Shown here piece by piece: positions 19,541 through 21,516 of a DNA stretch of 64,000 bases; position 1 is the stretch's first letter; each line of letters starts with the position of its first letter. Made by a program: the position numbers and the translations under genes. The DNA comes from Escherichia coli. GTDB lineage: Bacteria; Pseudomonadota; Gammaproteobacteria; Enterobacterales; Enterobacteriaceae. The notes beneath the pieces are model-generated. The model saw only the letters and a list, made by a program, of their open reading frames with translations. It was not told where the DNA came from and made no database searches. Location: assembly GCF_003334255.1 (NCBI RefSeq), contig NZ_QOWU01000005.1, one strand, 5' to 3'.

Positions 19541-20818
19541 ATGTCGTTAACAAATAAACAATGGCTGGGATTACCCTTAAATCTGGTGTGGGGATATATT
19601 GCCATTGCCATCTTTATGACCGGAGACGGTTTTGAACTGGCATTCCTGTCGCATTACATTAAAGCACTGGGTTTCACGCCTGCAGAAGCCTCCTTTGCCT
19701 TTACGCTCTATGGCCTGGCGGCAGCGCTTTCCGCCTGGGTTTCCGGCGTAGTTGCCGAAATTATTACGCCACAAAAAACCATGTTTATCGGCTTTGTGCT
19801 GTGGTGCGTATTTCACGTGCTGTTTCTGGTCTTTGGTCTGGGGCAGGCGAACTATGGGTTAATCCTGCTGTTTTATGGTATTCGTGGCCTAGCCTATCCG
19901 CTGTTCCTCTACGCCTTTATTGTGGCGATTGTCCATAACGTACGCAGTGACAGCACCAGTGCTGCGCTGGGCTGGTTCTGGGCAGTTTACTCTATTGGTA
20001 TCGGCGTATTCGGCAGCTACATCCCCAGTTTTACCATTCCGCTTATTGGCGAAATGGGAACATTATGGCTGGCGCTGGCCTTCTGTGGGGTTGGTGGCGC
20101 TGTTGCGTTAATTTCTATGCGCAAAGTAGAAACACCACGCCATATGCAAAACCTAACCACAAAAGAGAAGTTTAGCGAACTGGGCCGTGCGGTGACTTTG
20201 CTTTATACCAACCGCAATATTTTGCTTTCCAGTATTGTTCGCATTATCAACACCTTATCTTTATTCGGATTCGCCGTAATTATGCCGATGATGTTTGTTG
20301 ATGAGCTGGGCTTTACCACCTCTGAGTGGTTGCAGGTCTGGGCAGTCTTCTTCTTTACCACCATCTTCTCTAACGTATTCTGGGGCGTGCTGGCAGAGAA
20401 AATGGGCTGGATGAAAGTTGTTCGCTGGTTTGGTTGCGTGGGAATGGCGCTTTCAAGCCTGGCGTTCTACTACATGCCGCAACATTTCGGTCATAACTTT
20501 GCTATGGCGCTGATACCTGCGGTGGCACTGGGGATCTTTGTTGCTGCATTCGTACCGATGGCAGCCGTTTTCCCGGCACTGGAACCGAAACATAAAGGAG
20601 CAGCTATTTCGGTTTATAACCTTTCAGCCGGGTTGTCCAACTTCCTTGCTCCGGCAATCGCCGTGGTACTTCTGCCTTATTTCAGTACTATTGGTGTGGT
20701 TATCGCTTACACCACCCTGTATGTGATAGCGTTTATTATTTGCCCGTTTATTCGCGTCGAACAACCGGGATTCTCAAATCAGCAAGTGTGTGAAGGGAAG
20801 ACCGCCACCATTTCCTGA
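19541..20818 (+). CDS. dalT: MFS pentitol (D-arabitol) transporter
   Basis: 425 aa from MSLTNKQWLG...; paralog of rbtT. Confidence 0.8.
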   Translation: MSLTNKQWLGLPLNLVWGYIAIAIFMTGDGFELAFLSHYIKALGFTPAEASFAFTLYGLAAALSAWVSGVVAEIITPQKTMFIGFVLWCVFHVLFLVFGLGQANYGLILLFYGIRGLAYPLFLYAFIVAIVHNVRSDSTSAALGWFWAVYSIGIGVFGSYIPSFTIPLIGEMGTLWLALAFCGVGGAVALISMRKVETPRHMQNLTTKEKFSELGRAVTLLYTNRNILLSSIVRIINTLSLFGFAVIMPMMFVDELGFTTSEWLQVWAVFFFTTIFSNVFWGVLAEKMGWMKVVRWFGCVGMALSSLAFYYMPQHFGHNFAMALIPAVALGIFVAAFVPMAAVFPALEPKHKGAAISVYNLSAGLSNFLAPAIAVVLLPYFSTIGVVIAYTTLYVIAFIICPFIRVEQPGFSNQQVCEGKTATIS

Positions 20819-20862
20819 TGACGACAAGCCTGGTGTGGTGCCAGGCTTTATTGCGAGGAACA

Positions 20863-21516
20863 ATGTTTAATTGTAAAGCAGTCATTTTTGATATGGACGG
20901 CGTCATCATTGATTCGGAAGGGTTATGGCGTGAGGCACAAAAGGGAGCACTGGCAAGGTGGGGCGCATGTGTCAGTGACGAAGAGTGTATAAGACTGACT
21001 AAAGGTAAAAGGCTGGATGAGATTGCCCAAACCTGGTGTGAATATTGTCATTTACACATTGAACCCGCACTGTTGGAAAGTGAGATTCGCCGCCTGATCA
21101 CTACGTTGATTGCCGGGACGGGCGAAGCGATGCCAGGCGTTCAGGACGTGTTATTTTTTTTGCGCCGGAGTGGCTATCAACTGGCGCTGGCAACCTCTTC
21201 ATCTTACCAGGTGATCGATGCTGTACTGACAAAACTCAATATTCAGCATTATTTTTCGGTGATTTGTAGTGCTGATGACGAAAAGCATGGGAAACCCCAT
21301 CCGGCAGTTTATCTTTCTGCACTGCGAGAATTGCAACTGTCTGCTGCAGATTGTTTGGTTATAGAGGACAGCGTGAGTGGTTTTCAGGCAGCACAGGCGG
21401 CAGGAATAAACACCATTGTGGTATCAGAAGATGCCCAACAAACCTGCTTTAATGCGGCGAGTGCAAGATATTTATCGATGAATGAATTACTGGCAGCGTT
21501 AGCCGTAGCTGCGTAA
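20863..21516 (+). CDS. HAD-superfamily hydrolase (beta-phosphoglucomutase-like sugar-phosphate phosphatase)
   Basis: DxDG motif (AVIFDMDGVIIDSE) near N-terminus; GAGGAA SD before ATG 20863; an alternative ATG at 20818 overlaps the dalT stop (ATGA). Confidence 0.7.
   Translation: MFNCKAVIFDMDGVIIDSEGLWREAQKGALARWGACVSDEECIRLTKGKRLDEIAQTWCEYCHLHIEPALLESEIRRLITTLIAGTGEAMPGVQDVLFFLRRSGYQLALATSSSYQVIDAVLTKLNIQHYFSVICSADDEKHGKPHPAVYLSALRELQLSAADCLVIEDSVSGFQAAQAAGINTIVVSEDAQQTCFNAASARYLSMNELLAALAVAA

Follow-up and report, generated by a model that had tools for sequence, protein, structure and literature searches.

Experimental enzyme evolution and sugar-alcohol toxicity both have a textbook model in the ribitol (rbt) and D-arabitol (dal) genes of Klebsiella and Escherichia coli C. 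As far as the literature searched shows, the published description of the dal operon (Heuel et al. 1998, cited in PMC12307932 and PMC5156309) names three structural genes, dalD, dalK and dalT, and those papers in the literature searched that describe the rbt/dal locus mention the classical genes only. Here, we analysed a further gene that directly follows dalT in a 64,000-nucleotide stretch of an E. coli genome (contig NZ_QOWU01000005.1, hereafter the window) and that encodes a 217-residue phosphatase of HAD subfamily IA (positions 20863–21516, plus strand; open reading frame with a Pfam HAD_2 match, RefSeq coding sequence WP_000481293.1, labelled 'HAD family hydrolase'). A full-text literature search, whose reach did not extend to the original Klebsiella papers (Heuel 1997, Neuberger 1981), returned no paper on a phosphatase in the dal operon.

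The closest documented analogue of this fourth dal cistron is AraL, a HAD phosphatase encoded within the Bacillus subtilis araABDLMNPQ-abfA operon that is active on xylulose-5-phosphate, is dispensable for growth and has been proposed to act in detoxification, and whose expression is held down about 30-fold by an mRNA hairpin, as shown by mutagenesis (PMC3207120). Like the dal gene, araL encodes a HAD sugar phosphatase inside a pentose or pentitol operon that yields D-xylulose-5-phosphate, and both carry an mRNA hairpin at the 5' end. However, AraL belongs to HAD subfamily IIA (NagD type) and is therefore not homologous to the dal protein beyond the core fold; moreover, its hairpin covers the translation initiation region, whereas the one described here resembles an intercistronic terminator or stabiliser. 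A second comparison is offered by AbMtlD, the MtlD protein of Acinetobacter baumannii (PDB 7ocs), in which residue E25 binds polyol hydroxyls and loss of activity leads to toxic build-up of a polyol phosphate (PMC9168451). Its phosphatase domain shares the HAD-IA fold with our protein (template modelling (TM) score 0.87) and acts on a linear polyol phosphate, but it is only about 28% identical, forms a fusion with a dehydrogenase and has a biosynthetic role. The family to which the dal protein is most similar is that of HxpB/YniC (PDB 1te2, NF008087), with which it shares the HAD-IA C1-cap type, all catalytic motifs and the G-x-R-(L/I)-D cap turn; the E. coli K-12 member is hexitol phosphatase B, a 2-deoxyglucose-6-phosphate phosphatase. 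HxpB-type genes stand alone, whereas the clade analysed here is defined by linkage to dalT. The Klebsiella dalDKT and rbtDKT operons have the same genes, order and regulators as the E. coli locus, and the rbt operon has no counterpart of the HAD gene. The gene adds an uncharacterised member to a familiar enzyme family, its arrangement is likewise of a familiar type, and it is not categorically new.

The initial annotation had placed the HAD gene with the D-arabitol operon, outside its classical dalDKT description, and comparison across taxa bore this out and extended it. In a DalD-based scan of one genome per species, which returned 40 loci, a same-strand HAD gene followed dalT in 29 of the 31 loci that could be evaluated in Enterobacterales and Vibrionaceae, with a spacer of 17–68 nt between the two genes. 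The two exceptions were Enterobacter asburiae (L020) and an error-rich Leclercia assembly. The gene is also missing from all five Neisseriaceae dalDKT clusters (L039, L040, L041, L047 and L053), which lack dalR as well; these five, together with the E. asburiae locus, are ready-made comparison strains with dalDKT and no phosphatase gene. Erwiniaceae, for their part, have dalD-xylB clusters from which dalT is missing (PMC11226699). As a reverse test, the genomic context was looked up for eight further homologues of 51–69% identity, from Citrobacter koseri, Klebsiella variicola, Enterobacter hormaechei, Pectobacterium, Aeromonas caviae, Vibrio fluvialis, one further assembly and one metagenome contig. 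All eight lay on the same strand directly after dalT or, in Aeromonas, after a dalT remnant, while their flanks differed; in Aeromonas the HAD gene is kept with dalD-dalK though dalT has degraded to 62 residues. The Klebsiella comparison suggested at the outset gave the same arrangement, K. pneumoniae ATCC 13883 (L019), one of the 29 loci, having dalR followed by dalD-dalK-dalT-HAD. Occurrence of the gene at this position independently of dal, named in the initial annotation as grounds for abandoning the link, was not seen, as the clade members examined all adjoin dalT, its remnant or dalD-dalK. The description 'appended' falls short of this, since in Enterobacterales, Vibrionaceae and Aeromonas the gene is a long-standing fourth cistron that has been inherited vertically together with the rest of the dal unit. 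A link to the neighbouring yegS was considered and rejected: six genes separate the two in Klebsiella and Enterobacter, and the Vibrio, Pectobacterium and Aeromonas flanks are unrelated. Because the HAD gene moves with dal when the flanks change, it belongs to the D-arabitol unit and not to yegS.

Within E. coli, dalDKT was found in 332 of 5426 complete genomes, 305 with the common allele and 27 with an allele about 83% identical to it; strains C and ATCC 8739 are examples of dal-positive E. coli. The end of dalT, the HAD gene and the end of yegS were contiguous in 329 genomes, so that about 329 of the 332 dal-positive genomes keep the gene, and both island alleles, including the divergent O55:H7-type one, carry it. 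Three E. coli genomes had only a partial HAD match; the one that we opened (L013) proved to be the remnant of an IS1-mediated deletion and had no dal genes. The divergence of the two alleles extends to the whole pentitol island, the DNA of strain O55:H7 TB182A (L012) being about 83% identical to window positions 10538–21516. The common allele takes the place of the gat operon. In the O55:H7-type allele, which neighbours an intact gat operon, rbtT is missing and rbtD is a pseudogene.

We next consider where translation of the HAD gene begins, for which two starts had been suggested. The dalT stop codon TGA occupies positions 20816–20818, and an ATG at 20818–20820 does overlap it (ATGA) in frame with the HAD gene, giving an open reading frame of 232 amino acids (20818–21516), a long form used in some automatic gene calls (P0001). 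This candidate, 23 codons upstream, is peculiar to the allele of the window; no upstream in-frame start candidate was present in the second E. coli island allele (L012), and it does not recur in other genera. It was rejected as a start on these grounds, and also because translation from it would pass through the hairpin described below. The ATG at 20863, by contrast, is shared by all 35 orthologous loci, where the only common start candidate lies 7–8 codons before the FDMDG motif, and it is the true start of the gene. It is preceded by a Shine-Dalgarno-like GAGGA (20855–20859, plus strand) outside the hairpin, and GAGG is kept at this position in most orthologous dalT-HAD spacers; the ribosome-binding site had been called strong, but with a gap of 3–4 nt to the ATG it is better described as moderate. 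The intercistronic spacer accordingly spans positions 20818–20862 (plus strand), 44 nt past the dalT stop, and contains the non-conserved in-frame ATG.

The protein itself has the features of an active enzyme. The DxDG motif reported earlier in a HAD hydrolase directly after dalT is present as F-D-M-D-G at residues 9–13 of 217, the product matches Pfam HAD_2 with E=1.5e-34, and its TIGR01509 score of 64.3 bits, above the cut-off of 29.4, assigns it to HAD subfamily IA. Among 19 orthologues, motif I (F9-D10-M11-D12-G13-V14), motif II (T111-S112-S113), motif III (G143-K144-P145) and motif IV (E168-D169-S170) are invariant, with D10, D12, T111, K144 and E168-D169 as the catalytic residues, and motifs II–IV align with the catalytic residues T118, K151 and E175-D176 of AbMtlD (PMC9168451). 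An AlphaFold 2 model built on the orthologue alignment reached a predicted local distance difference test score (pLDDT) of 95.4 and shows a Rossmann-like core with, after motif I, an inserted four-helix C1 cap whose helices lie at residues 19–86. Its best Foldseek match was YniC (1te2; TM 0.87, probability 1.00), followed by CbbY, a xylulose-1,5-bisphosphate phosphatase, and then by the mannitol-1-phosphate phosphatase domain of AbMtlD. With its catalytic motifs intact and invariant, its family matches and its model fold, the product is almost certainly an active phosphomonoesterase acting on a small sugar or polyol phosphate.

Substrate specificity, on the other hand, cannot be read off the sequence. 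The top NCBIfam model was HxpB (NF008087), whose curated cut-off of 191 bits the protein misses with a score of 171.5, and for that reason the RefSeq name stays 'HAD family hydrolase' and assignment as an HxpB equivalog was rejected; the remaining top families are all sugar- or polyol-phosphate phosphatases. Elsewhere, databases occasionally use the names 'HxpB', 'YniC' or 'phosphorylated carbohydrates phosphatase', with HxpB given to some Vibrio orthologues and some E. fergusonii records. Beta-phosphoglucomutase was likewise rejected (TIGR01990, 91.6 bits against a cut-off of 189.4). E. coli YniC/HxpB (1te2) is the nearest solved structure (E=2e-28, 31% identity; profile E=8e-45), and orthology with yniC was rejected on account of this identity and of the position of YniC in the tree described below. 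In the substrate-binding region, the invariant E19 aligns with the polyol-contacting E25 of AbMtlD, while the other cap residues of AbMtlD that contact mannitol-1-phosphate (R28, L32, Y74 and R78) are not conserved (PMC9168451). A cap-loop signature, T-K-G-K-R-L-D, is common to the dal-linked proteins and to stand-alone HxpB-like proteins of Vibrio; residues K47 and K49 were therefore dropped as a dal-specific argument about specificity.

In a neighbour-joining tree, all dal-linked proteins formed one clade, apart from the stand-alone HxpB-like proteins. The sister clade comprised stand-alone 'HxpB' genes beside hrpA in Vibrionaceae and one gene in a different polyol cluster, and E. coli YniC fell outside both. 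Identity ranks of the HAD proteins track those of DalD. Between the two E. coli alleles, the ratio of nonsynonymous to synonymous substitution rates (dN/dS) was 0.088 for the HAD gene versus 0.025–0.034 for dalR, dalD, dalK and dalT, showing that the gene is under purifying selection and is less constrained than the dal genes. Base composition was uninformative about a separate acquisition, since the slightly low GC content of 47% (43% at third codon positions) lies inside the range of the island genes. From its conserved linkage, single clade, purifying selection and occasional loss, the HAD gene is an old, co-inherited yet dispensable member of the dal unit. That purifying selection has maintained it all the way from Escherichia to Vibrio suggests a pathway that requires, or at least profits from, a phosphatase.

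These data also bear on the possibility that the gene is a passenger, that is, a general HxpB-like sugar phosphatase caught beside dalT and carried with the mobile pentitol unit without any role specific to arabitol. Its faster evolution than the dal genes (0.088 vs ~0.03), its loss without replacement in E. asburiae and absence from Neisseriaceae, and the fact that its closest non-dal relatives are stand-alone housekeeping genes beside hrpA in Vibrionaceae would all fit such a history, as would the general tendency of HAD phosphatases of this family to be promiscuous, for which AraL is an example (PMC3207120). We nevertheless regard it as unlikely, because the gene keeps the same position and strand from Escherichia to Vibrio and Aeromonas despite many changes of flank, the dal-linked clade is monophyletic, selection is still strongly purifying, Aeromonas keeps the HAD gene though its dalT decayed, and the terminator of the unit lies after the HAD gene and not after dalT.

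The dalT-HAD spacer contains an RNA hairpin that had been noted as a stem-loop at 20826–20849. Folding with ViennaRNA confirmed it with an end one base earlier, at 20826–20848 (plus strand): a 9-bp stem (AAGCCUGGU / GCCAGGCUU) with a 5-nt loop (GUGGU), followed by UAUUG, with a folding energy of -14.4 kcal/mol. Taken alone, the E. coli hairpin is unremarkable, with a z-score of -1.8, 12 of 200 shuffled sequences folding as well and 4.6% of same-length coding windows at the locus doing so too. Across species, it is clearly non-random. A GC-rich hairpin was found at the same place in 33 of 34 distinct dalT-HAD spacers, with a mean z-score of -3.2 and differing stem sequences. It begins 1–16 nt past the dalT stop (5–16 nt in all but three) and ends 10–23 nt before the start codon in all but three spacers. 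In a plain MAFFT alignment of 27 enteric spacers, RNAalifold recovered an 8-pair helix with compensatory changes in five of the eight pairs, in which 96.7% of the cells pair; the 26 double-sided changes compare with 5.5 +/- 1.8 in shuffled alignments (none of 500 reaching the observed number) and 0–8 in slid controls. No Rfam family matched at E<=1 between positions 16300 and 21800, and assignment of the hairpin to a known RNA family was rejected.

The hairpin is not unique to the HAD junction, an idea that was rejected once the other spacers had been folded. A hairpin in the dalK-dalT spacer (19483–19517, plus strand; core CUCCGGUG...CACCGGAG) folds with -26.4 kcal/mol and a z-score of -3.6, and was present in 34 of 34 distinct orthologous spacers with a mean z-score of -3.4; the rbtK-rbtT spacer has a homologous hairpin. 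Since dalK-dalT and rbtK-rbtT have them too, intercistronic hairpins are part of how these operons are built and do not mark an operon end at dalT. The rbtK-rbtT (11813–11913, minus strand) and dalK-dalT (19473–19540, plus strand) spacers share the core CUCCGG...CCGGAG and the leader, CCCUAAAAACGAGGU and CCUACAAACGAGGU, a likeness that suggests a joint duplication of the paralogous transporter genes and the RNA element upstream of them. In four loci, K. spallanzanii (L016), Enterobacter sp. 10-1 (L022), K. indica (L044) and R. terrigena (L029), the dalK-dalT spacer is 133–194 nt long, compared with about 68 nt, and contains a long imperfect palindrome. This palindrome looks like a repeat of the ERIC (enterobacterial repetitive intergenic consensus) type that was inserted upstream of the conserved hairpin.

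Downstream of the HAD gene, positions 21517–21592 hold a terminator-like element between it and the convergent yegS that is plausibly bidirectional (fold -33.7 kcal/mol, z-score -4.3, none of 200 shuffles as good). It consists of an A-tract, a long GC-rich hairpin (core arms 21526–21538 and 21571–21583) and a U-tract overlapping the stop codon of yegS. When the first eight loci listed were compared at this point, the same GTGAGCGCAGAAG...CTTCTGCGCTCAC hairpin followed the HAD stop codon in Citrobacter, Klebsiella and Enterobacter; as Klebsiella and Enterobacter have another gene next, the terminator belongs to the dal-phosphatase unit. A query that extended no more than 111 nt into yegS (21590–21700, the 3' end of that gene) matched more than 2700 E. 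coli genomes at 80–95% and not near 100%, and the recombination boundary of the island may for this reason lie inside or beyond yegS and not in the intergenic terminator.

Could the dalT-HAD hairpin instead be the true operon terminator, with the phosphatase expressed on its own and unrelated to arabitol induction? In Vibrionaceae, the hairpins are followed by long T-tracts, like those of canonical intrinsic terminators, and the E. coli stem is followed by UAUUGCG, or, should the two outer A-U pairs stay open, by a short U-rich UUUAUU, both of which lend this reading some support. Against it, a consensus scan, which weak promoters can escape, found no sigma-70-like promoter between the end of dalT and ATG 20863, and the hairpin ends a mere 14 nt before the start codon; most enteric hairpins are without U-tracts and are not called by the terminator scan, and no hairpin at all is present in the 17-nt spacer of Vibrio albus. 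Furthermore, an equivalent covarying hairpin lies between dalK and dalT. These two genes were reportedly described as one operon in Klebsiella by Heuel and co-workers in 1998. Expression of the phosphatase as an independent gene is quite improbable, and the hairpin probably terminates transcription in part or hinders mRNA decay. Sequestration of the ribosome-binding site of the AraL type was also considered and rejected, as the hairpin leaves both the Shine-Dalgarno element and the ATG free.

Taking these observations together, we favour, with moderate confidence, a reading in which the dal-linked HAD-IA phosphatase is the last cistron of the dal operon and serves as a low-level safety valve against phosphorylated by-products. 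The product belongs to a distinct dal-linked clade within the HxpB/YniC family of sugar- and hexitol-phosphate phosphatases and is predicted to be an active, Mg-dependent phosphatase of the C1-cap type. Its gene would probably be transcribed from the dalD promoter under DalR control, as dalD-dalK-dalT-had, with transcription expected to stop at the 21517–21592 terminator. The dalT-HAD hairpin would probably let less mRNA extend into, or persist over, the distal cistron, through partial termination or as a barrier to 3' decay, and the sister hairpin between dalK and dalT may act likewise, so that the hairpins would grade mRNA abundance along the operon. The phosphatase would then be produced in small amounts compared with the dehydrogenase and the kinase. 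It would most likely hydrolyse phosphorylated by-products or overflow when cells are flooded with pentitol, candidate substrates being D-arabitol phosphate, xylitol-5-phosphate and/or excess D-xylulose-5-phosphate. Such polyol phosphates may be formed by a promiscuous xylulokinase or by the hexitol and fructose phosphotransferase systems. Xylitol phosphate is toxic in E. coli (PMC6411968), and build-up of mannitol-1-phosphate is toxic in Acinetobacter baumannii (PMC9168451). Detoxification of pentitol or pentulose phosphates, as raised in the initial annotation, is a plausible role and consistent with the homology of the protein; the likely purpose would be the disposal of dead-end or excess phosphate esters.

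Several points weigh against this proposal. The gene is dispensable in nature, having been lost cleanly from E. asburiae, where dalT adjoins the next gene, and being missing from the Neisseriaceae clusters, and it evolves about three times faster than dalRDKT. In E. coli, no good U-tract follows the hairpin and the terminator scan did not call it, making an attenuating effect conjectural; it ends at 20848, 6 nt before the Shine-Dalgarno element and 14 nt before the ATG, leaving the former uncovered. Because a similar hairpin precedes dalT, whose product is needed, a hairpin by itself does not mean that a product is to be kept scarce. The specificity of HxpB is not transferable, given a score below the HxpB cut-off and 31% identity to the family member with known hexitol-phosphate activity, and the cap-loop signature, being shared with stand-alone Vibrio proteins, is no dal-specific adaptation. 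A xylulose-5-phosphate phosphatase beside a xylulokinase would form a futile cycle. Finally, the literature searched gave no report on a substrate, transcript or phenotype of the HAD gene. Even so, the proposed low-level disposal of phosphorylated by-products is better supported than each of the three rival explanations, two of which were discussed above.

In the third, the phosphatase would carry out a productive step, either freeing D-arabitol for DalD from D-arabitol phosphate imported by a phosphotransferase system, or enabling arabitol synthesis through reverse DalD (xylulose-5-phosphate to xylulose to D-arabitol, as a solute or redox sink), as the AbMtlD phosphatase domain does for mannitol. 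The resemblance of our model to that mannitol-1-phosphate phosphatase domain (PMC9168451) is in keeping with this, as are the retention of the phosphatase gene with dalD-dalK in Aeromonas, where dalT is degraded, and the occurrence of a related HAD gene in another cluster with a polyol dehydrogenase and an ABC transporter (L057). However, the unit nearly always has its own non-phosphorylating transporter of the major facilitator superfamily (MFS) and its own kinase, which fits catabolism of free arabitol; the co-expressed kinase would oppose synthesis, and the HAD gene can be lost with dalDKT intact. We accordingly give a productive role only a slim chance. On the L057 metagenome contig (6264–7648), the HAD gene is 46% identical to ours, overlaps the end of a gene for an NrtR/AraR-like Nudix regulator and is divergent from the genes for a dehydrogenase of the Mannitol_dh family and an ABC sugar transporter; the arrangement independently provides another tie of this phosphatase family to polyol catabolism.

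A narrower form of the by-product proposal, which we put forward only tentatively, is that of a dedicated pentitol-phosphate repair phosphatase, acting on D-arabitol phosphate or xylitol-5-phosphate, that would be induced together with the arabitol pathway and whose dose the conserved hairpin would keep low. Classical observations include the toxicities of arabitol and xylitol and the near-exclusive occurrence of the ribitol-arabitol and galactitol loci in E. coli. If the repair function were true, the enzyme would be the missing element behind these toxicities and behind the near-exclusive rbt-dal/gat distribution, and would illustrate in general how a catabolic operon can carry its own metabolite-damage control. 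Confirmation of the broader proposal would give a defined physiological substrate to a large set of 'HAD family hydrolase' annotations and a Gram-negative counterpart to B. subtilis AraL, and would help in engineering strains that produce xylitol or arabitol, in which the yield is limited by polyol phosphates. With its two covarying hairpins between cistrons, the operon offers a compact natural case for studying how expression ratios are set.

The surrounding locus, which is part of the E. coli chromosome, was delineated with gene coordinates from the annotated record of strain G1/2 (NZ_CP060083.1), which is identical to the window over the 12 kb compared. The ribitol/D-arabitol island is flanked by fbaB (9429–10481) and yegS (21590–22489, minus strand), and its genes run, from fbaB, rbtT, rbtK and rbtD on the minus strand, rbtR, dalR on the minus strand, dalD, dalK, dalT and the HAD gene. 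The SorC-family regulator gene dalR (15474–16415, minus strand, by annotation) is divergent from dalD and is conserved upstream of it in all Enterobacterales and Vibrionaceae loci examined. The first gene of the operon, dalD (16628–17995, plus strand), is annotated as encoding D-arabinitol 4-dehydrogenase and matches NF043014 at 755.7 bits (cut-off 600). It is followed on the same strand by the D-xylulokinase gene dalK (18009–19472, annotated as xylB; TIGR01312 xylulokinase, 641 bits) and by dalT (19541–20818), annotated as the D-arabitol MFS transporter gene and matching TIGR00897 at 514 bits (cut-off 375). By annotation, the galactitol operon is absent between fbaB and yegS in the window; in K-12, this position is occupied by that operon.

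Other loci and parts of the window showed further features. In Pectobacterium (L010/L011) and A. caviae (L006/L007), same-strand transaldolase and transketolase genes follow the HAD gene and extend the unit towards consumption of xylulose-5-phosphate, and the A. caviae copy adjoins an integrase gene. At the start of the window (positions 1–613), the annotated end of an IS1 copy abuts a 5'-truncated fimbrial gene, and a thiamine pyrophosphate (TPP) riboswitch is annotated at 2561–2657, before thiM-thiD.

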